Shown: piece after piece, positions 3,317 through 31,986 of the stretch
Layout of the letters: each line of letters starts with the position of its first letter
How positions within the stretch are numbered: the stretch's first letter is position 1
NCBI GenBank assembly: GCA_003345555.1
Contig: PRDJ01000039.1
Span: 30,001-62,000, forward strand
Length of the DNA stretch: 32,000 bases
Direction: 5' to 3'
From: Candidatus Thorarchaeota archaeon
Lineage (GTDB): Archaea > Asgardarchaeota > Thorarchaeia > Thorarchaeales > Thorarchaeaceae
Notes under the pieces: model-generated
Database searches by the model: none
Seen by the model: the letters and a program-made list of their open reading frames with translations, nothing else
Told to the model about the DNA's origin: nothing
Made by a program: the position numbers and the translations under genes

Positions 3317-4561
3317 ATGGCTAACAACCCGTTCGAAATCGCTCAGCACCAGATTGACATCGTCGCGAAGCGATTAAAGGTCGATCCGGGCATAATTGAA
3401 ATCATAAAACAACCCAAACGCGTCTTGGAAGTGGCAGTTCCCATAAGGATGGACAACGGTCAGTTGCGGGTCTTCCGCGGTTACAGAGTCCAACACAATG
3501 ATGCGCGCGGTCCCTTCAAAGGTGGCATCCGGTACGGTCCAGGAGTAAACATGGATGAGGTGAAGGCACTCGCTACTTGGATGTCAATGAAAACAGCAGT
3601 AATGGACATTCCATACGGTGGAGGAAAAGGCGGAATCATATGCAACCCCAAAGAGATGAGCAGCGCCGAGCTTGAGAGGCTGACCCGCAGATTCACCGCC
3701 GAGATTAGCTCTATCATCGGACCACTGAAGGATATCCCTGCTCCCGATGTGAACACGAACCCGCAGACGATGGCTTGGATAATGGATACCTATAGCGCTA
3801 CTATGGGCATCGCTGAGCCCGCAGTTGTGACAGGTAAGCCCATCTCCCTTGGGGGATCCCTCGGTCGAAACGAAGCCACTTCTCGTGGTGTTGTGATATG
3901 TGCCAGAGAGGCAGCCAAGGTGACCGGAGCAAAGCTTCAGGGCGCCACTGTGGCAGTAACTGGATACGGAAACGTTGGCTACAATTCGGCATGGCTTGCT
4001 CAAGAACTTCGCATGAGAGTTGTCGCTTGTAGCGACTCCCAAGGCGCTATCTACAATCCAGATGGTTTGGATGCTCGAAAAGTCGGTGATTTCAAGGCAA
4101 GGACTGGCACGGTCAAGGGTTACCCTGGATCGAAAGAGATTCCCATTGACAAAGTGGTCGAACTGGATGTCGATTTTCTGTTCCCCTGCGCTCTGGAAAA
4201 TGAGATTACATCGACTAACGTAGAATCAGTGAATGCGAAGATTATCATTGAGGGCGCAAATGGTCCCACCACACCCGAAGCTGATGAAGTTCTATACAGA
4301 AATGGAACCTTCCTTGTTCCTGACATCTTGGCCAATGCCGGAGGAGTGACGGTCTCTTACTTCGAATGGCTTCAGAACCTACGGCGCGAGTATTGGACTG
4401 AACAGGAAGTTAATGTTAAACTCGAGGCACGCATGGTGAAGGCATTTCATGAAGTCTATGACATTGCCAAGAAGGAAAACGTCCACATGAGAACGGCAGC
4501 ATTCATGCTGGCCGTGGGCAGAATAGCATCAGTTATGGAGACGCGTGGTCTGTTTCCATAG
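3317..4561 (+). CDS. gdhA: Glutamate dehydrogenase (414 aa from ATG 3317; alternative TTG start at 3293 with GGGAGGA 8 nt upstream)
   Basis: YRVQHNDARGPFKGGIRY, MSMKTA, YGGGKGG, DIPAPDVNT, GRNEATSRG, GYGNVG, EGANGP, PDILANAGGVTVSYFEW. ORF-track start 3236 is probably too early. Confidence 0.96.
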   Translation: MANNPFEIAQHQIDIVAKRLKVDPGIIEIIKQPKRVLEVAVPIRMDNGQLRVFRGYRVQHNDARGPFKGGIRYGPGVNMDEVKALATWMSMKTAVMDIPYGGGKGGIICNPKEMSSAELERLTRRFTAEISSIIGPLKDIPAPDVNTNPQTMAWIMDTYSATMGIAEPAVVTGKPISLGGSLGRNEATSRGVVICAREAAKVTGAKLQGATVAVTGYGNVGYNSAWLAQELRMRVVACSDSQGAIYNPDGLDARKVGDFKARTGTVKGYPGSKEIPIDKVVELDVDFLFPCALENEITSTNVESVNAKIIIEGANGPTTPEADEVLYRNGTFLVPDILANAGGVTVSYFEWLQNLRREYWTEQEVNVKLEARMVKAFHEVYDIAKKENVHMRTAAFMLAVGRIASVMETRGLFP

Positions 4562-4578
4562 AGTTCCATAGGGTACTC

Positions 4579-4615
4579 GGAGGACTATCCATCAGGATGG
4601 TCCTCCACTTCTTTT
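4579..4615 (+). terminator. Hairpin plus pyrimidine tract downstream of the + strand gdhA
   Basis: GGAGGACTATCC (4579-4590) / GGATGGTCCTCC (4595-4606): 12-bp stem with one G-U and a 4-nt loop, then ACTTCTTTT. Confidence 0.65.
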
Positions 4616-4776
4616 ACACATCGGCATGGATCATGCGGTGGAAACACTGGAGAATAAGTGGCACTAGGGTGAGCACGTGCACCAGCAAAAATCAGTGCCT
4701 CGAACGAGGAGGCACGAGTTGCGCATGATGTCTCCAACATTCTCACTAATCACTGGCCAAATTGCATTAAGATGGG

Positions 4777-13421: not shown

Positions 13422-13657
13422 TCTAGAATCCTCTGAACAAAAACTGCGTAGATATGGGCATTTAATGCTTGCTCCCAAGATTGGCGCCGTATCTCTTTAA
13501 TCAGCTAGGCCTTCTTGCAGGTCGCGACACGGTCCAGATTAGCGTGAATCGATTTCCGCCTGACCTGAGTCACTGCAAACGATTCAACCAAAATACGTCT
13601 CAGGAACGAACAGTCGATAGCGTCATAAGGGCCCTAACCGTCCCTCAATGCTTGAGC

Positions 13658-14605
13658 ATGCTCTTCTCAGAGATAACCCCTGGCGTCCACTCCGTAAGAG
13701 GGAAGTTCGCTCCGGAATTTGGCTTCATCTCAAGCTACTTGGTCGTAGAAGGTGAGGAAGTTCTCGTTATTGATCCGGGTACTGTGGGGGACCCAGGGGA
13801 AGACATTCTGAAGGCAATCGACTCCCTTGGAATGAAACCAAAGCGCTGTGTTGTAGGCATCTTGTGCACTCACGGTCACCCTGATCACATTGGAGGTGTC
13901 TCTAGGCTGCGAAGAGCAACCGGCGCCCCGGTAATGATTCACAGCGGGGACAAGGAGCTTCTCGAGAGACCTGAGACGTTTCCTCGAGAACGGCTTAGAT
14001 TGAATTTCGCGGGACGTCTTGCTATGAAGGTTGACCGAAGCCCTCTCCGGGTAAACTATGCCGGGCAGAAACCTGACCGTATTCTGAGCCAAGGCGATCA
14101 GATAGATGTGGGCGCGGTTTCTCTCAAGGTGATTCATACCGGGGGCCACTCAGCAGGGCACTGTATGTTCTTCGACCCCGACAGAAAGATACTCTTCTCG
14201 GGCGATGAGCTGAACAACTTCCCAAATGAGCCCCGGAGGTTCTATGTCGATCTCAGCGGCAGTCTCACAACCAAGCTCTCAGCGATTGAGCGTCTCTCTT
14301 CCATGGAGATTGACTATATACTTCCTAGCCACGACGTGCCTCATGTATTGGACGATGCCAAGCCCCAACTAGACGAGATCAGGGAAGGAGTTGTCCAGTT
14401 TCTCGACTTGCTTCTAGAACACTTGGGCTCTAGAGGTGAAGCCGACATAGAACAGCTCGCATTTGATTTGGCGCAAAGCAAGGCAGTGCCGATTCCCGAG
14501 GTACTGAATTCTCTTCTTCCAACGACAATCCAAGTTGCACTAAGTGACCTGATGAGAGCTGGGCTGGTCAGGGTCAACGCAGACGGGGTATGGAGTCCAA
14601 GATAG
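13658..14605 (+). CDS. Metallo-beta-lactamase-fold hydrolase (315 aa) with a C-terminal wHTH-like extension
   Basis: IDPG, THGHPDHIGG (HxHxDH), TGGHSAGH, FSGD, LPSHD. Start moved from 13469 to ATG 13658, where the family N-terminus (EITPGVHSV) begins. Confidence 0.92.
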   Translation: MLFSEITPGVHSVRGKFAPEFGFISSYLVVEGEEVLVIDPGTVGDPGEDILKAIDSLGMKPKRCVVGILCTHGHPDHIGGVSRLRRATGAPVMIHSGDKELLERPETFPRERLRLNFAGRLAMKVDRSPLRVNYAGQKPDRILSQGDQIDVGAVSLKVIHTGGHSAGHCMFFDPDRKILFSGDELNNFPNEPRRFYVDLSGSLTTKLSAIERLSSMEIDYILPSHDVPHVLDDAKPQLDEIREGVVQFLDLLLEHLGSRGEADIEQLAFDLAQSKAVPIPEVLNSLLPTTIQVALSDLMRAGLVRVNADGVWSPR

Positions 14606-14747
14606 GGTCCGAGTGCCTTACAACCGAGCTATGTTCAAAAGAAACCTGCTTCTCTTCTGATTTGTTGTGATACTCGTCCAGCGGGTGCACACTAGGTCGC
14701 GCATCAGCTGTGTCCTTGGTGACTAGGTGAACACAGGAGGCTAAATC

Positions 14748-17345
14748 GTGAGTCGAACGGGGAAGCCAAAGGCTGTGAGTGGAAGTACTATCGAGGCTAT
14801 TCGAATGGCGTCCGCATCGGTTCTGGGTTCCACGACCGGACATGGCTATCCAATCGGTGATGCGGTCGGTGTGGGCAGCATGATGGAGGCCAACTCTGAA
14901 GCTGTTGCAGGAAATGTGGCACCACTGATTCTCTCGGTAAGCACACCTTTGAAGGCCTCTGAAGAGCTTGAACTTCTGTCTATGGAGTGGGACCTCGAAA
15001 GGACGCCGGGACCCGAGATACTGCCTGAACAGCTCGTTGTTGCTGGGGGGTATGCCCGGGGTGTTAGTTCACATGTTTCCATGCTAACTTGGGAAAAGGG
15101 CATTGCGGATCCCTTCAATATCGAAGAACGAGTCGAGCTAATCTCAAAGAAGCTTGCTGACCTAGAAGCGGCAACATCGGCAAGCGGGCTCGGGGTTGAA
15201 AACGAAGGTCTAGCCGTCCTCCGTAAGTTCTCGGGCAGATTGAATCGGACTCTGTTCCTGGATATGTTAGATCGTCAGTTTCAGGGGTCTTGGAGTACGC
15301 TCAGGATCAAGCCTGAGGATGTCGATGTAGAACTTGTGATTAGGCAGAGCTATCGGAAGGATTTCACGACTATGCCTCCCGGTGTGAACATCTCCGAACG
15401 CTCAAGTCCTGAATTCTTGCTTCCAGATGCTGATGATGCTGCGCTAACGGAGCACTTCAAACACCGAATCCTGAGCCCAAGCGCAGTAAGAGCGCTGTCC
15501 GTTCAAGTGCCCGAAATCGGAAGGGCGATTCTCAAGGAAATGAACAGATATGCTTACAGCGGCGAGGAGGCTGATATAGCTCGAGCGCTTACGGCGGCGC
15601 TCGTCCGGTTCTTGGGCCGGACCGATATGCGATTTGCCGAACTGGACAGCATAGCGAAGGAAGCTGTCGATTTCACAAGCACTGCAAAGAACGCGATTAG
15701 GATCCTTGGAGATGCCGTAGAGCAGCATGTTTCCTCTGGTACGAGTCTTCGTCTAGCCGAGCACAAAGAGCGTCTTGATACTGCAGTTGAATCCTTAATC
15801 GTTAAGTTACCCAGCCCCACTCGCGATGTAGTGACTTGGTTCCTGCATGAAATGACCTCTGCCATGATGAAGTCTGCCGGAGGTGACCTGCCGGGTGAGG
15901 TCGAGTTCAAGGCTTGGCAACTCAAGAGCGCGACGGGATATTTCCTCACCTACGCTAGGAAAGTCAGCGACTACTTTGCTGAGCAGCTCTATCGTTTCCT
16001 CATCGTTTCATTCGCACGGGCAGGCATCATGAATTCGCTTCACAGTCTTCATCAGGAAATGCTTGAGAAGGGTCTGAGCCCCACAGATCTGGTATTGTTT
16101 AATATGCTCTATGATGAGCTTCTGTCAAAGTTCAAGTCGGCTCTTGGCCGACGGGCGTGCGAAGGAACGACAGAGCGCAACCCAGGCCAGCTCATGGTAG
16201 CAATAGTCCAAGAAATCGTCGATGAATTCTCACGGGATAATCCGCGGAACATGGCTCAGTTTAGGAACATGGTTCAGGTCGCACGTTCCGAGATAGAGGC
16301 AAAACACAAGGTCGAGGAGCGAGATGGCGTACAGGGTCTCGACCGACTAGGAGAAGCACTGTTGGTCCGACTCTCTGACCTTGAGACTCTCGTCACACAA
16401 ACGCTTCAGGATATTGCAGATACCCTTCTCAGCAAGAGATTCATCACTCAACTCGCAGATTTGACGACAACAGAGCAATCCAAATTGTCGGCCGAATTCA
16501 TCAGACTAGTCGAGCTGCAGGAAGGTAAGTCGGCGCAATGGAAGAGCGAAGCAAGAAAGATAGTAAACGATGCTCTGCAAGGAGCCGCCATGGGAAAGGG
16601 CACAGCCCCGAGGTTGCTTACGCTAACACAGAATCTACACGAGGCCATCCGTACCGGCCCTTCCACCGAGTCAGTCCTACAACGCGTGAAATCTGAAGCC
16701 GAGAGGCTCCAAGCAGAATACGAGCGCGAAGTCGAGGAGTGGGAGATAGCGTGTTCTCGGATAGAATCAGAGAACGTGCGTATTCGGGATGAGAATGAAA
16801 CAAGAGAAGGTCTCCTGAAGCAGGCAAGCGCTGACTATGCTCGCGAGACGGCTCAATATGAGCAATTGAAACAGGCATATGACCCGTCTACCGTCCCAGG
16901 TTCTCCTCCTGAACCGCCTGAAACCCTCGAGCAGCGTGTTCTTAGAATCGAGCGGGCGCATCCCGTACAGATGCCCAAGTCGATGCCCACGAAACCAGAG
17001 GCGCCTGAAGAGCTTCTCGTTGCTGATGAGCTGCGCGATACGATTGCCGCCAACATCGAGACAGCAAGCAGAGACGAAAAATCATTACAGAGTATTCTCA
17101 TAGATCGACTGAATTCCATGCGCGATCAACCGGCGAACCAGATGGGGGATCAGGTCGTCAATATCGCTGACGGATTTCATGAGTACCTATTGGAGTCAAC
17201 AATACGAAGCATCGGAAAGCTGCTGCCGCGTGCTTCACGGGTCTATCTTAAATCGCCTGAAGAACCCGACCTGATTTATCTCGTGAGCTACGAATACAAG
17301 AAGGACGAGATGATGGTTCAAATCGGCAGCAATTTCCTGAGGTGA
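14748..17345 (+). CDS. Large hypothetical protein (865 aa): N-terminal alpha/beta domain, long helical region, C-terminal coiled coil and Pro-rich segments
   Basis: 2.6-kb ORF; AGGAGG RBS (14735-14740) 7 nt before GTG; no catalytic motif recognised. Confidence 0.85.
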   Translation: MSRTGKPKAVSGSTIEAIRMASASVLGSTTGHGYPIGDAVGVGSMMEANSEAVAGNVAPLILSVSTPLKASEELELLSMEWDLERTPGPEILPEQLVVAGGYARGVSSHVSMLTWEKGIADPFNIEERVELISKKLADLEAATSASGLGVENEGLAVLRKFSGRLNRTLFLDMLDRQFQGSWSTLRIKPEDVDVELVIRQSYRKDFTTMPPGVNISERSSPEFLLPDADDAALTEHFKHRILSPSAVRALSVQVPEIGRAILKEMNRYAYSGEEADIARALTAALVRFLGRTDMRFAELDSIAKEAVDFTSTAKNAIRILGDAVEQHVSSGTSLRLAEHKERLDTAVESLIVKLPSPTRDVVTWFLHEMTSAMMKSAGGDLPGEVEFKAWQLKSATGYFLTYARKVSDYFAEQLYRFLIVSFARAGIMNSLHSLHQEMLEKGLSPTDLVLFNMLYDELLSKFKSALGRRACEGTTERNPGQLMVAIVQEIVDEFSRDNPRNMAQFRNMVQVARSEIEAKHKVEERDGVQGLDRLGEALLVRLSDLETLVTQTLQDIADTLLSKRFITQLADLTTTEQSKLSAEFIRLVELQEGKSAQWKSEARKIVNDALQGAAMGKGTAPRLLTLTQNLHEAIRTGPSTESVLQRVKSEAERLQAEYEREVEEWEIACSRIESENVRIRDENETREGLLKQASADYARETAQYEQLKQAYDPSTVPGSPPEPPETLEQRVLRIERAHPVQMPKSMPTKPEAPEELLVADELRDTIAANIETASRDEKSLQSILIDRLNSMRDQPANQMGDQVVNIADGFHEYLLESTIRSIGKLLPRASRVYLKSPEEPDLIYLVSYEYKKDEMMVQIGSNFLR

Positions 17346-17349
17346 TTCA

Positions 17350-19794
17350 ATGTCAAGCTCTTGGATACTCAGAACTCGTCAGATGAGTGAAGCTGGAAAG
17401 GAAATCCTTCTGAGAGAAGCGCTCGCTTCTCATATGAGGAACACACGCGATCGACAGTTTGTCGCAGAGCTCCTGAAACAGAGATTGCCTCTGGAAGACA
17501 TTGTTTGCCTCTTTGCAGCTTATTACCTCACGAGCTATCAAGACGTGAGGCTGAGGGGACATGAATCCTTTGAGAACGTTCCCGGCGAACAGAAGGATCG
17601 GGTAGCGGCTGAGTCGCGGAGACTTCTGGAACTGGAGATACGCGGGCTCTTGGGTAACAAACAGAAAGAAGAGATGGACGTTGCAAGACTCATCAGCGAA
17701 TTCATAGTTGAATTCTGTGATGAAGTCGTGAGACCTGACTCGTCAAACCCTCAGGCAGGGATTGAAGTCACTAAGCTGCTGCAATCGTATGTCAAGAGAA
17801 TTCCTAATGACTACTCGCCAAACCATCATATCGATTTCATCAATGGTGTTACAGGCTGGGGGTCTATATGGAGAGACGAGATCTATGAGAAGGCATCGGG
17901 GCTCAAAGAGTCATCCCTGACGCTCAGAGAGGAGCTGCTTAAGGAGCGTGAGCCGGAGATACCCGAAACAGCTGTTCTTCTTAGGTGCATTACACGTTTG
18001 CTGGGACATACTACGTACCTTCAGGGCCCGTTGAGCCCCGGTGATATCGATAATAGCAAGTGGGAGGAGATTGCCCGAGCAGTAACCCAGAATATCGCCA
18101 AGAGCGGACAGGGGCTGCAAGCGCTGAGGAAAGCCCATCAGATTCGTCTAGAAGCTCTTGATGCCATCGAGAGGGAATTTCAAACCCCGACTTCCCTTGA
18201 GGAATTCGAGAATCGAGTCGGCGATTTTCTGGCGAAGCGAATTGCCGAGGAGATTGCAGCTAATCCAAATGACGCGTACTTTCTCTTGGGGCACTTGCTT
18301 GGCCTCAACCCAAATGATGTCAAAGCGGCACTCAGACCGAAAGGAATCGCCAGCCCAACTGACCTTGTGTCTGGGTTCGGCGCACTGACCGCGGGAGCAC
18401 CTGAGGATGTTGGGCGCACCCCAGCGGAAAAGGGTGATTTGGAGGACATGGACCGCTCGCTGAAAACATTGGACAAGATCGAGCAGACCCTTGAGAAGTC
18501 TGTGAAGGGTATGCTTCGTTCCCGCGGTCTCAAGTCTTCCGAACTCGACAAGATATCCCTCCAACTTCTCACCAAAGAGCGAAGCAGCCTCATAGGAATC
18601 GAGATTGTTGTATTGGAACAGTTGAAGAAGATGGTACGTGTTCCTCCTCCGCAAGAGATTGCCCGATTAATCAAACTCCGCGAGGACGTACAGAAAGGTG
18701 CCCTGACTTCTTCGGGTGTCTCCTCAGGACCACAAGTCAGCCGCCAGCTGAAGCAAGATGAGACAATCCGTTCTCTTAAGCTGGATATAGTCTGGCACCT
18801 GATGATAGGCCTGTTTACGAACCTGACTCGTGTAGTAGAAATGTACGTGCGTTCCAAGCAGGACATTCTTCGTATCAAAGCGCTTCTCAAAAGCATCTAC
18901 GAGAAGACCGAGAGTGAATTGCAGGTCTACCGAGAAGAGATACTTTTCGACTTTGCCATCGTACGAATCCAAGAGATCAAGTGTATTTGCCCTGAGTTGG
19001 ACACCCTTTCCCTTTGGGCTTGGTTCCATGCGCGGCTGTCAGGCGAGGACATGGATTCTGCTAAGTCTGAGTTCACTGGTTCGTCAAGTTCTGTGTTTGA
19101 GGGCGTGGTCAAAGCCCCTCTCAGAATAGCTGGTCTTGAATTTGATAACTACGCTATAGCTTTCGACGTGATGAACAGATTCCTAGTGAGGGAGAAAAGG
19201 GCAAAGCAGGCTAAGGAAGAGGTTGCGGTAGAGACGAAGCTTGAAGAACAGAAAATGATAGAAACCAAACGGAAGGAGCTCGACGTCCTCACATTTATCT
19301 ATACTAAGGCTCACACCGTATTCAAGGCCACGGGCAGGACCGGTCCCAAAGGCTTGGAATGGACATCAACTGATAGTTCCAAATGTGCGAATCTCCTGAG
19401 TCTGTACTTGAGAACCAATCGGGGCCGAGCCATATGCACGGCATGTGGGTCAATGGCTAAGGAGGGAACGTGTCCTAATCATGGTTCAGAGCTTGTAAAT
19501 GCGAGTTCCGACTTGGACAACTTGGCGGTGTTCATAATGCAGGGAATCTCCGAAATCAAGACTGGCCTTATCGGGCCGTCTGCTGAATCCATGTCGTGGG
19601 AGAAAGCGAAGGCCGTCGTGCAGAAAGAAACTAGCTTGCTCAAGCAGAAAGGCAAGCTTGACAAGAAGGCGAACTTGAAGCTTCTCTTGCCGGGTGAGAT
19701 AGACTATGTGGTCGGCCCAGCAATGGCGGCCGTCGTGGCGCAGTACTTCAATGAGTCACTTCAGTATGCCGCTCGTCGGGCACGCTTGGCATGA
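17350..19794 (+). CDS. Large hypothetical helical protein (814 aa) with a C-terminal CxxC...CxxH zinc-binding motif
   Basis: 2.4-kb ORF; GAGGTGA RBS (17339-17345) overlaps the upstream stop; CTACGSMAKEGTCPNHG. Confidence 0.85.
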   Translation: MSSSWILRTRQMSEAGKEILLREALASHMRNTRDRQFVAELLKQRLPLEDIVCLFAAYYLTSYQDVRLRGHESFENVPGEQKDRVAAESRRLLELEIRGLLGNKQKEEMDVARLISEFIVEFCDEVVRPDSSNPQAGIEVTKLLQSYVKRIPNDYSPNHHIDFINGVTGWGSIWRDEIYEKASGLKESSLTLREELLKEREPEIPETAVLLRCITRLLGHTTYLQGPLSPGDIDNSKWEEIARAVTQNIAKSGQGLQALRKAHQIRLEALDAIEREFQTPTSLEEFENRVGDFLAKRIAEEIAANPNDAYFLLGHLLGLNPNDVKAALRPKGIASPTDLVSGFGALTAGAPEDVGRTPAEKGDLEDMDRSLKTLDKIEQTLEKSVKGMLRSRGLKSSELDKISLQLLTKERSSLIGIEIVVLEQLKKMVRVPPPQEIARLIKLREDVQKGALTSSGVSSGPQVSRQLKQDETIRSLKLDIVWHLMIGLFTNLTRVVEMYVRSKQDILRIKALLKSIYEKTESELQVYREEILFDFAIVRIQEIKCICPELDTLSLWAWFHARLSGEDMDSAKSEFTGSSSSVFEGVVKAPLRIAGLEFDNYAIAFDVMNRFLVREKRAKQAKEEVAVETKLEEQKMIETKRKELDVLTFIYTKAHTVFKATGRTGPKGLEWTSTDSSKCANLLSLYLRTNRGRAICTACGSMAKEGTCPNHGSELVNASSDLDNLAVFIMQGISEIKTGLIGPSAESMSWEKAKAVVQKETSLLKQKGKLDKKANLKLLLPGEIDYVVGPAMAAVVAQYFNESLQYAARRARLA

Positions 19795-20107
19795 GCCTTT
19801 GCGATCTCAATCAAGGAAAAAAACCACTCTTCCTCTCCGTCAGATGGTAACCTCTGTGCTATTTAATCACCTCAAATCCAGCGCAATCGCAGGACAGTCT
19901 CCGCCGTTCTGACCGACAGAAAACGTAGAATATTGTCTGTCGGCAGATTGTGGGTGAATAGTTGAATTGATTCTCGGTGAATAACCGAAATGAACGTCGA
20001 GACAAGACCCGTTGTTCCACCGGACGGTCCTTGGGTCTTCTAAGGAGCACCAAGGTCAACCTCTGGAATCACATCATTGAGAGATTCGTGAATATTCAAA
20101 GCCCCTG

Positions 20108-20150
20108 GTGCCGGTACCGATTCTGGGACCGGCACACCATCCTCTTTTTT
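20108..20150 (+). terminator. Hairpin plus T6 tract
   Basis: GTGCCGGT (20108-20115) / ACCGGCAC (20128-20135), TTTTTT at 20145-20150. Confidence 0.5.
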
Positions 20151-20296
20151 CGTCTTCAAGTAACTCCGTTGGGCTGATTCATTCTACCAGTTCGCCGATT
20201 GTTGTCCTCCTTCCGCATTCTTCACGAATCGCTGCTTTTGTTAGAAGAGGCGGTTGATCGGCCTATTCCCCTGATAGTCATAGAGCAACGTAACCT

Positions 20297-20308
20297 GAAA
20301 CTTATATA
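20297..20308 (+). promoter_or_regulatory. BRE/TATA box for the aldolase-Fae operon
   Basis: GAAA-CTTATATA ~38 nt upstream of ATG 20346. Confidence 0.6.
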
Positions 20309-20345
20309 CGGCCTTAGGACCGGCTTGGCTGCTGAGTGAATTCAG

Positions 20346-30673: not shown

Positions 30674-31531
30674 CTACGCAGGCACCGGTTTGGCTTCACC
30701 CTTTCCTTCAAGGATGGCTTTCCGGATGATTTGAATGAGGCGGTCTCTATAGGAGATGTCTATCGCGACGAGCTCGTAAGTGGCGATTCCGAGAATCTGG
30801 CCCACTCTCTCAGGAGTCAGAGCAGTGGGCAGGTCTTGCTTGTTGGCGATGCCAATTACCTTGGCTTCAGGAACCTCCTCTTTGACCAGAGACACCAACT
30901 TCTTGCTACGCAAAACGTTCTCAAGGGTACTATCGGTCACAATGATGACAACTTGGGCATTCGCTATCATCTTGGCCCAGAGGATACTAAACCGCGATTG
31001 ACCCGCAAGGTCCCAGAGTACTATGTTCGCATTTTGGACTTCGTCCGGGAGCTTCTTTATCGATACACCGATTGTAGGATCATGTACCAGTGGAAGTGTC
31101 TCTCCCCTGAGCAGATGCAGTGTGGTGGTCTTGCCAACGCCTGCGTATCCAAGAATCGCCACCTTCACCATTGTCACTGCTATCTCGTCGACCTTTGCAT
31201 CAAGACCTTCCAAGGGGAGGTTCGCTTCTGCAAGGGTTGCGAAGTCCTTTATGAAGGCATCAACTAGCTGCGTCATCCGCTCCTCTATCTGAGCTGTGTC
31301 GTCGGCCTTGTCGGCCACAAACATGAATACGAAGTCGCGTCGAGCAGCATAGAATATCCTTGTCCCTGAGAAACCCATGTACTCTGTCTTTCCCTCCAGG
31401 TCAACTGAGGAAATGAAATGAGCGAAATTCACTAGGAACTCAACCAGTCCCTCTCCTGATTCGCTCTTGGCGTATTCTTTGGAATATATGACATTGCTCT
31501 GTTGTCCAAGTATGTATAGGCTTCTAATCAT
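30674..31531 (-). CDS. Longin-domain / small Ras-superfamily (Arf/Rab-like) GTPase fusion (285 aa)
   Basis: G1 GYAGVGKT, G2 PTIG, G3 WDLAGQ, G4 NKQD; N-terminal ~115 aa with longin-like pattern (IRSLYIL...VIYSKEY...RIFYAARRDFVFMFVAD); ATG overlaps the upstream TGA (ATGA). Confidence 0.92.
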   Translation of the reverse strand: MIRSLYILGQQSNVIYSKEYAKSESGEGLVEFLVNFAHFISSVDLEGKTEYMGFSGTRIFYAARRDFVFMFVADKADDTAQIEERMTQLVDAFIKDFATLAEANLPLEGLDAKVDEIAVTMVKVAILGYAGVGKTTTLHLLRGETLPLVHDPTIGVSIKKLPDEVQNANIVLWDLAGQSRFSILWAKMIANAQVVIIVTDSTLENVLRSKKLVSLVKEEVPEAKVIGIANKQDLPTALTPERVGQILGIATYELVAIDISYRDRLIQIIRKAILEGKGEAKPVPA

Positions 31532-31986
31532 TGCTCGCCACTCCACTTCTCGGCAAGTATCTCAAGATGTCTTCTGGCAATCTCAGGGGTTATCTCGTCG
31601 TTAGACAGCTTATCTGCTATCAGCGGCAGAACAAACTCTGGGATAAATGATTCCATGATTGGGTTGGTCACCAAAGCCCAGATTCCTTCTCCGATTTGTG
31701 CCGCAACATTTTCAGACTCTAAGCTGAATAGCGCGTTTTGAACGATTTCTTCCTGAAGCAGCGTTCTGTTCGATATCTCTCTCACTGAAAGCGGCTCATC
31801 TCGCAGAGAAGTTAGGACCTTGTATTCGATCTTCTTGGAAAGCACTCTCGCGATCTTTTCCCTGTCTTCGACCAGCGGTGAATTGGGGTCGTCGCTGGGT
31901 ATCGTGGGGTTGTATCCTCGGCTCGGAGGTGGCGGTGCGAAGAACTCAGCAACTCGCTGTTGGTACTGAGCGGCGAGCCCGGGCAT
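31528..31986 (-). CDS. Winged-helix-containing hypothetical protein with a PPPP motif (at least 152 aa; may extend beyond the window)
   Basis: YKVLTSLRDEPLSVREISNRTLLQEEIVQNALFSLESEN...GIWAL is a wHTH pattern; no in-frame stop between 31987 and the window end. Confidence 0.8.
   Translation of the reverse strand: MPGLAAQYQQRVAEFFAPPPPSRGYNPTIPSDDPNSPLVEDREKIARVLSKKIEYKVLTSLRDEPLSVREISNRTLLQEEIVQNALFSLESENVAAQIGEGIWALVTNPIMESFIPEFVLPLIADKLSNDEITPEIARRHLEILAEKWSGEQ

Follow-up and report, generated by a model that had tools for sequence, protein, structure and literature searches.

An Asgard archaeal gene pair encodes two large proteins, one with a predicted longin-type head

Introduction

Asgard archaea encode dozens of small GTPases and dozens of longin and roadblock proteins, but to our knowledge hardly any regulator-GTPase pairs or larger assemblies have been described from them. 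Eukaryotes use the longin fold to dock small GTPases. A stretch of 32,000 nucleotides (nt) from a Candidatus Thorarchaeota archaeon (contig PRDJ01000039.1, positions 30,001 to 62,000; here called the window, ~51% G+C) carries two adjacent genes for very large uncharacterized proteins, protein 1 (P0001) and protein 2 (P0002), which a first-pass annotation, made from the letters alone, had read as a coupled pair and possibly as a eukaryote-like trafficking, tethering, or guanine nucleotide exchange factor (GEF) complex headed by a longin or uDENN fold. What are these proteins, which organisms encode them, and do they belong to any longin system already described? We report that the pair appears to be a new, well-defined kind of longin-headed complex, for which we propose a function below.

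Results

Two large genes are tightly coupled

The two open reading frames (ORFs) read as first described: 865 and 814 amino acids (aa) long, separated by 4 nt, with the ribosome-binding site of the second holding the stop codon of the first. The genes and their signals, all on the + strand, are as follows.

14735-14740, +: AGGAGG, Shine-Dalgarno-like, 7 nt 5' of the gene 1 GTG (direct sequence reading)
14748-17345, +: gene 1, GTG start, encoding protein 1 (865 aa), acidic and soluble; predicted to run from a longin head through a helical body and a coiled-coil hairpin to a C-terminal alpha/beta domain (AlphaFold2 [AF2] model, homologues)
17339-17345, +: GAGGTGA ribosome-binding site, including the gene 1 TGA stop, 4 nt 5' of the gene 2 ATG
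17350-19794, +: gene 2, ATG start, encoding protein 2 (814 aa); predicted all-helical and without a fold match; residues 401-500 and 601-700 form basic patches
14748-14804 (gene 1) and 17350-17382 (gene 2), +: segments cut off by public gene calls (alignment with distant homologues)

Judged by its sequence, the junction with its stop-overlapping ribosome-binding site is one of translational coupling. Public gene calls begin at internal Met codons and yield 846 aa and 803 aa. The longer starts are the better ones, since the N termini are conserved in distant homologues: the part of protein 1 that precedes M20 (STIEAIR motif) is kept even in distant families, and other members of the protein 2 family are 814 to 816 aa long. 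Neither gene is a chance ORF, because each has full-length homologues in more than 150 genomes.

The 550-nt gap between gene 2 and the next gene contains no convincing ORF. Within it, at window positions 20108-20150 and thus ~315 to 355 nt past the protein 2 stop, lies an 8-bp G+C-rich stem (−18.7 kcal/mol, z −1.95) followed 9 nt on by T6. This element, which the terminator scan did not call, could by its sequence be an operon terminator.

The pair occurs together in six Asgard families

To place the pair, we collected relatives of both proteins. Each has more than 100 full-length relatives at 35 to 77% identity, nearly all of them "hypothetical protein" entries from Thorarchaeota metagenome-assembled genomes, in which the two genes carry consecutive locus tags. 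A profile (A3) built from Thor-type, Frey-type, Jord-type, and sister-family protein 1 sequences was then searched against 1.84 billion representative proteins. It matched 62 clusters, and all credible ones are Asgard; the two weakest were rejected as bacterial coiled-coil noise, and no relative outside Asgard archaea was found in this set. The protein 1 matches form three groups: the Thor-type proteins; a second group of 881 to 915 aa from Jordarchaeales and Freyarchaeota; and a divergent third group of 755 to 813 aa from Helarchaeota and Lokiarchaeota, which includes NEF87_002840 of Ca. Lokiarchaeum ossiferum, with the protein 2 orthologue as its downstream neighbor. The alignment of Thor-type with Loki-type protein 1 runs over the full length (hhalign probability 100%, E 1e-42); the Loki/Hel-type proteins are ~70 to 90 residues shorter in the hairpin and Pro-rich tip described below. 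We found no paper that describes the protein family or names the L. ossiferum orthologue.

We next counted both proteins by family in 301 genomes sampled from the phylum, where absence means not found in the genomes searched. Six families were positive and span Thor-, Loki-, Hel-, Jord-, and Frey-type Asgard archaea.

Family f1 (the family of the source genome): protein 1 in 70/76, protein 2 in 70/76
Family f2 (sister family): protein 1 in 1/1, protein 2 in 1/1
Family f7: protein 1 in 5/5, protein 2 in 5/5
Family f9: protein 1 in 65/68, protein 2 in 64/68
Family f19: protein 1 in 5/6, protein 2 in 5/6
Family f24: protein 1 in 7/7, protein 2 in 7/7

Both proteins score 0 in the other 24 Asgard families sampled (e.g., 0/28, 0/21, 0/19, and 0/11). 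The six f1 genomes that lack protein 1 are the same six that lack protein 2, and they include all three genomes of genus g4 (G027, G037, and G098; 96 to 99% complete). The g4 absence looks like a joint loss of both genes and offers a natural comparison for function.

The pair is adjacent at every locus examined, and the second gene at every junction is a protein 2 homologue (BLASTP 7e-64 and 1e-51; hhalign 99.8%). Only the spacing and the lengths vary:

Frey-type loci: 914 + 804 aa and 912 + 807 aa, 4-nt gap
Jord-type locus: 871 + 789 aa, 17-nt gap
Sister Thor family locus: 879 + 804 aa, 1-nt overlap
Loki-type locus: 771 + 801 aa, 19-nt overlap
Hel-type locus: 789 + 827 aa, 44-nt overlap

Because the genes are adjacent, tightly coupled, single-copy, and present or missing together, we regard them as one functional unit. 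The suggestion that the two proteins act together is borne out by coupling in every lineage, by identical phyletic patterns, and by joint absence, and the synteny and phyletic check that had been proposed for it gives the same answer, with the pair adjacent elsewhere and present or absent together in six families. On this comparison of sequences, the view that the pair is an old, vertically inherited, Asgard-specific two-subunit module is well supported.

The source genome has one copy of the pair. One Loki-family locus (G121:C50:70184-81747) carries two full pairs in tandem, another (G231:C211:14469-22085) carries two protein 1 copies followed by one protein 2, and several f9 genomes additionally encode a protein 2 variant of ~730 to 736 aa.

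Large orphan proteins without annotation might also point to a mobile, defense-related, or virus-derived cassette. Set against this are a pair that is near-universal, single-copy, and syntenic in six families, flanks of housekeeping and metabolic genes, and a base composition that matches the rest of the window; a Foldseek search of protein 2 against a viral structure library also returned nothing. We consider such an origin extremely improbable.

Protein 1 carries a predicted longin-type head

The AF2 model of protein 1, computed from the family alignment, has a predicted local distance difference test score (pLDDT) of 86.9 and a predicted template modeling score (pTM) of 0.80. It divides the protein into five parts.

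14787-15272, +: longin-type head, residues 14-175, beta-beta-alpha-beta-beta-beta-alpha-alpha (b-b-a-b-b-b-a-a); most conserved part of protein 1
15324-15401, +: conserved beta-hairpin, residues 193-218, with an (L/M)PPG motif (AF2 model, alignment)
15477-16655, +: helical body, residues 244-636 (AF2 model); no significant fold match
16665-17126, +: long antiparallel helical hairpin (640-710 and 754-793) with a Pro-rich tip, 711-753 (AF2 model)
17133-17342, +: C-terminal alpha/beta domain, residues 796-865, conserved (AF2 model, alignment)

By DSSP assignment of the model, the head has strands at residues 23-29, 35-41, 75-84, 95-103, and 106-114 and helices at 44-72, 122-145, and 150-174, with a short N-terminal helix at 14-20; the resulting order b-b-a-b-b-b-a-a is the longin topology. 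All seven elements of the pattern that had been read by eye from residues 17-140 coincide with elements of the model. Longin domains are told from roadblock domains by the lack of the roadblock N-terminal helix and by an extra C-terminal helix (PMC10933270).

Foldseek searches of the PDB with the whole protein 1 and protein 2 models returned no match at E up to 1e-3. We re-examined the top Foldseek chains over the same residues of protein 1; on residues 16-185 the structural matches are all longin or roadblock domains, and longins score highest. The series is headed by 5ldd_B of Mon1-Ccz1 (7.5), followed by four Fuzzy entries (6.6 to 7.4), the Lokiarchaeota longin 8yqg_A (6.2), sedlin 2j3w_C (5.6), several longins of the TRAPP complex (5.0 to 5.2), the LAMTOR roadblocks 5x6u_B and 5y39_G (5.0 to 5.1), and the AP5 complex subunit 8yab_C (4.9). 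Roadblock/LC7 (PF03259; a-b-b-a-b-b-b) was rejected as an assignment: the head has the longin topology, it has no Pfam Robl_LC7 match, and roadblocks score below longins.

Sequence methods gave no link to any family. Pfam scans of proteins 1 and 2 returned 0 families at E up to 0.01; a relaxed scan (E up to 1) of 30 protein 1 members returned coiled-coil noise only, and the 25 weak matches that recurred most often included no longin or roadblock family. Profile searches of PDB sequences with either protein found nothing meaningful. In hhalign comparisons, the protein 1 family reached a probability below 1% against three local proteins (the head of the longin-GTPase in the window, a longin-plus-winged-helix protein in the window, and a Loki roadblock neighbor), a weak test with single-sequence templates. 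Searches of the ESM Atlas with the protein 1 head and with whole protein 2 gave scores below 0.8, poor Atlas models, and no lead. Standalone homologues of the head were sought as well, and the short matches proved to be fragments on contigs of <1 kb to 2.3 kb. Taken together, the model supports a longin-type domain at the head of protein 1 as a fold-level match. The longin half of the earlier longin/uDENN call is supported at the level of the fold; the uDENN half falls, with no DENN core after the head.

The head is also where the family is most constrained. Residues G37, G41, P93, L113, E116, G118, D121, K135, D138, F161, and R164 are invariant family-wide, and the protein 1 alignment as a whole (A1, 71 sequences) has a mean column identity of 58%. 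Beyond the head, residues 186-865 contain only seven short strands in the model. A 71-residue helix (640-710) is predicted to pack antiparallel on helix 754-793, and prolines P721, P724, P739, P747, and P750 at the hairpin tip are conserved. A coiled coil of ~100 aa had been expected here; a long helical hairpin does exist, but its longest helix is that of 71 residues. Helices 640-793 resemble generic alpha-hairpins of MacA, EmrA, and HP0958, and the remaining matches of the helical region fall short of the noise level that helical proteins give. With a pI of 5.15 and a net charge of −28, protein 1 is acidic; it has no transmembrane (TM) segment, its maximum Kyte-Doolittle average over 19 residues being 1.18.

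The pair belongs to none of the longin systems compared

The best structural matches come from tri-longin RabGEFs, which have three consecutive longins in each of two subunits and heterodimerize via the first longins. Compared with these complexes (Mon1-Ccz1 and Fuzzy-Inturned), the head has 4 to 13% identity and no profile signal; protein 1 has one longin rather than three and protein 2 none, and the remaining ~690 residues of protein 1 are predicted helical bundles unrelated to them. A catalytic longin-longin heterodimer between proteins 1 and 2 is impossible because protein 2 has no longin.

Longin R-SNAREs (Sec22, Ykt6, and VAMP7) consist of a longin, a SNARE motif of ~60 residues, and a C-terminal membrane anchor. 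We rejected this assignment as well: protein 1 has no SNARE motif and no TM segment, its long helix begins only ~465 residues after the head, and its C terminus is alpha/beta. The Lokiarchaeota Roadblock-Longin protein 8yqg shares 5% identity with the head; it is a roadblock-longin fusion that forms longin dimers, whereas protein 1 sets its longin atop an 865-aa helical protein. The TRAPP longins and sedlin (2j3w_C, 3cue_C, and 7b6d_E) and the LAMTOR/MglB proteins (5x6u_B and 5y39_G) are small single-domain subunits of multisubunit complexes. The hairpins of MacA (3fpp), EmrA (4tko), and HP0958 (3na7) show a generic supersecondary likeness without homology, and those proteins are periplasmic or flagellar.

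Two further longin systems were compared. In the DENN module, a longin (uDENN) is followed by an alpha/beta DENN core and a helical dDENN (PMC3521125); in protein 1 the head is followed by a beta-hairpin and helical bundles, with no alpha/beta core and no DENN Pfam match, so that a DENN protein was rejected. FLCN-FNIP, GATOR1 NPRL2-NPRL3, and C9orf72-SMCR8 likewise have two large subunits with an N-terminal longin, and longins of the GTPase-activating protein (GAP) type are marked by a conserved GP motif where strand 2 begins and by a catalytic arginine finger nearby (PMC12290439). Thor-type proteins have G33-Y34-P35 in the place of that motif, but GYP gives way to GSF, AFG, or SSI in the Frey-, Jord-, and sister-Thor-type members, and no conserved arginine was seen in the loops at the strand-2-start end of the sheet (R85 and R104 are not conserved family-wide). 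A GAP-type longin was rejected accordingly. FLCN-FNIP, GATOR1, and C9orf72-SMCR8 are absent among the listed structural matches, and the pair has no DENN domain.

These comparisons bear on whether the pair is truly, if very distantly, homologous to a eukaryotic longin complex (tri-longin RabGEF or DENN/GAP-longin) and would count as a eukaryotic signature protein that sequence methods have missed. The top head matches are first longins of Ccz1/Mon1 and Fuzzy, and the module has two subunits as those complexes do; against this, the longin count, the missing DENN core, and the lack of a longin in protein 2 all differ, Pfam and PDB sequence searches with E values allowed up to 1 are empty, the family does not keep the GP motif, and the pair was not found in the 24 other Asgard families sampled or outside Asgard. 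We regard this homology as very unlikely. Membership in a eukaryote-type GEF, tether, or trafficking family, as the first-pass annotation had entertained, finds no sequence or profile link to any such family, and the label "eukaryote-like GEF or tether" is unproven. By analogy, the pair may work most like longin-headed two-subunit GTPase regulators, while being a member of none.

Protein 2 is helical and carries a zinc motif

The AF2 model of protein 2 (pLDDT 84.6, pTM 0.68) is all-helical apart from one zinc knuckle:

19435-19482, +: zinc-ribbon-like knuckle CxxC-x8-CxxH (C696, C699, C708, and H711; alignment)

The protein had been described as helical with a zinc motif, and both features hold, but the spacing is x8 and not x9. 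The protein 2 alignment (A2, 75 sequences) has a mean column identity of 69%. The four zinc-motif residues are invariant in its 75 Thor-type sequences and in A4, and conservation of the motif in a wider protein 2 set is at least 90%. Protein 2 is near neutral overall and has no TM segment, and by hhalign its family is not homologous to that of protein 1.

The knuckle, which gives weak Zn_Ribbon_TF (TFIIB-type) and Zn_ribbon_Nudix Pfam matches in 9 to 12 of 30 members (E up to 1), and the basic patches of protein 2 would suit a nucleic-acid complex acting in chromatin, RNA, or repair. Loki- and Hel-type loci have, convergently downstream of the pair, a PD-(D/E)XK-like gene that points the same way and is tandemly duplicated in the Hel-type genome:

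L026:12716-13432 (−); L027:2953-3762 and 3692-4672 (+); L028 ~3939-4652: PD-(D/E)XK-like genes

That gene, however, is convergent and reaches a Pfam E of only ~2e-4, and at the Thor, Frey, and Jord loci examined it does not adjoin the pair. The zinc segment is absent from one Loki-type homologue (and retained in one Hel-type homologue), and most Loki-family protein 2 matches end at model position ~688 of 813, before it. Protein 1 is strongly acidic, and searches of both proteins found no nucleic-acid-binding fold and no ATPase or nuclease motif. A nucleic-acid role is therefore improbable in our estimate.

Neighboring genes differ among lineages

In the window, the neighbors are metabolic: an aldehyde:ferredoxin oxidoreductase, a metallo-beta-lactamase (MBL)-fold hydrolase, two DapA-Fae fusions, and an M20 peptidase.

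13469-14605: MBL-fold hydrolase gene, directly upstream of the pair

The MBL gene adjoins the pair in sister family f2 and in 4 of 5 other Thor genomes (in the fifth it is ~5 kb off), but Loki-, Jord-, and Frey-type loci do not have it beside the pair, a pattern suggestive of synteny at the level of the order. The pair region is collinear throughout Thorarchaeaceae. A longin-GTPase encoded at 30674-31546 had been put forward as a partner, and its orthologues (75 to 78% identity) do lie 13 to 17 kb from the pair in 5/5 Thor genomes from four genera. This proximity is family-wide collinearity and not operon linkage; metabolic genes intervene in the window and the linkage is not kept outside the family, so that we rejected a functional link and set the proposed partnership aside.

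Other lineages place different genes beside the pair, as follows.

L015:10812-12026 (+), Jord-type: 404-aa HEAT/Adaptin_N-like gene, overlapping the stop of the protein 2 homologue
L017:2939-3649 (−), Frey-type: 4-(hydroxymethyl)-2-furancarboxaldehyde-phosphate (4-HFC-P) synthase gene, MfnB-like
L017:3789-4538 (−), Frey-type: 236-aa Arf/Ras-like small GTPase gene
L026:6849-7235 (−), Loki-type: 128-aa Robl_LC7 gene; likewise in L019, L020, L021, L023, L024, L025, and L028
L026:12437-12700 (+) and L027:4788-5084 (−), Loki/Hel-type: genes for small 2-TM proteins of 87 and 98 aa (BLASTP E 2e-5 between them)

The HEAT/Adaptin_N-like protein is a possible third subunit in the Jord type; the source genome has only a weak match to it (E 7e-6), elsewhere in the genome. 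At the Frey-type locus the pair is followed on the same strand by the 4-HFC-P synthase gene and then by the GTPase gene. The Robl_LC7 gene lies divergently upstream of the pair at eight Loki-type loci from at least four genera (65 to 95% identity), and its product is a candidate partner of the longin head; the closest roadblock counterpart in the source genome is on another contig. The gene for the 2-TM protein, whose C-terminal tail is first acidic and then basic, immediately follows that for protein 2 on the same strand. No hydrophobic ORF was found in 19795-20345 of the Thor window, and a search of the source genome with the Loki 2-TM peptide gave no match, a weak test for so short a protein.

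Discussion

That the unit is cytoplasmic and Asgard-specific, with the longin head as its most constrained part, is well supported. What it does is a more tentative matter. Longin and roadblock domains are established GTPase platforms (PMC3747258; PMC10933270), and our preferred reading, offered as a working proposal, is a two-subunit cytoplasmic scaffold whose longin head is the docking site of a small GTPase or of a roadblock partner. The functional end of the complex would be the head of protein 1, which would pair with a second longin or roadblock module, either another copy of the head or a separate roadblock protein. By analogy with Mon1-Ccz1, TRAPP, MglB, and Ragulator, the paired head may provide a binding platform for a small Ras-superfamily GTPase, with the complex acting as regulator or effector of the bound GTPase. 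The helical body, hairpin, and C-terminal domain of protein 1, together with protein 2, would serve as the scaffold that sets this platform in place. In the Loki/Hel type, the cotranscribed 2-TM protein is the probable membrane anchor of the complex; no 2-TM gene was found in the Thor type, whose hairpin is the longer one and bears a Pro-rich tip.

The main rival is a scaffold, tether, or cytoskeleton/membrane complex that works independently of GTPases, in which the head would be no more than a protein-protein interaction module of the kind found in adaptor sigma/mu subunits or SNARE longins, and the hairpin with its Pro-rich tip the business end. It accounts for a module in which ~90% of the 1,679 residues are predicted helical bundles plus a long hairpin without a catalytic signature, for the conserved prolines at the tip, for the 2-TM partner in Loki/Hel operons, and for the fact that no GTPase gene is consistently linked to the pair. 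It sits less easily with family-wide conservation that is strongest in the head, with a hairpin that is shortened and loses its Pro-rich tip in the Loki/Hel type, and with the roadblock gene beside the pair across Loki genera. We judge it somewhat unlikely, and less likely than the docking scaffold.

A bolder reading would have the pair as a previously undescribed, Asgard-invented machine that regulates GTPases or organizes membranes, with its longin head on a scaffold unlike any solved structure and a second subunit of equally unmatched fold, evolved independently of eukaryotic longin complexes on the Loki/Thor/Jord side of the phylum and anchored by the 2-TM protein in Loki/Hel; we consider this doubtful as a whole.

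The apparent absence of the pair from 24 other sampled Asgard families limits its direct bearing on eukaryote origins. Few large modules organized around a longin domain are both near-universal and lineage-defining, and the pair, within the lineages that have it, is among them. As modeled, the whole of protein 2 and the greater part of protein 1 are candidates for new folds, with ~90% of the mass of the module in predicted folds that match nothing searched, and the orthologues in the cultured L. ossiferum make the pair open to experimental study. If it proves to bind a GTPase or to sit at a membrane, it would show how prokaryotes built longin switches into big complexes independently of eukaryotes; if it does neither, it would broaden the range of uses to which longin domains are put.

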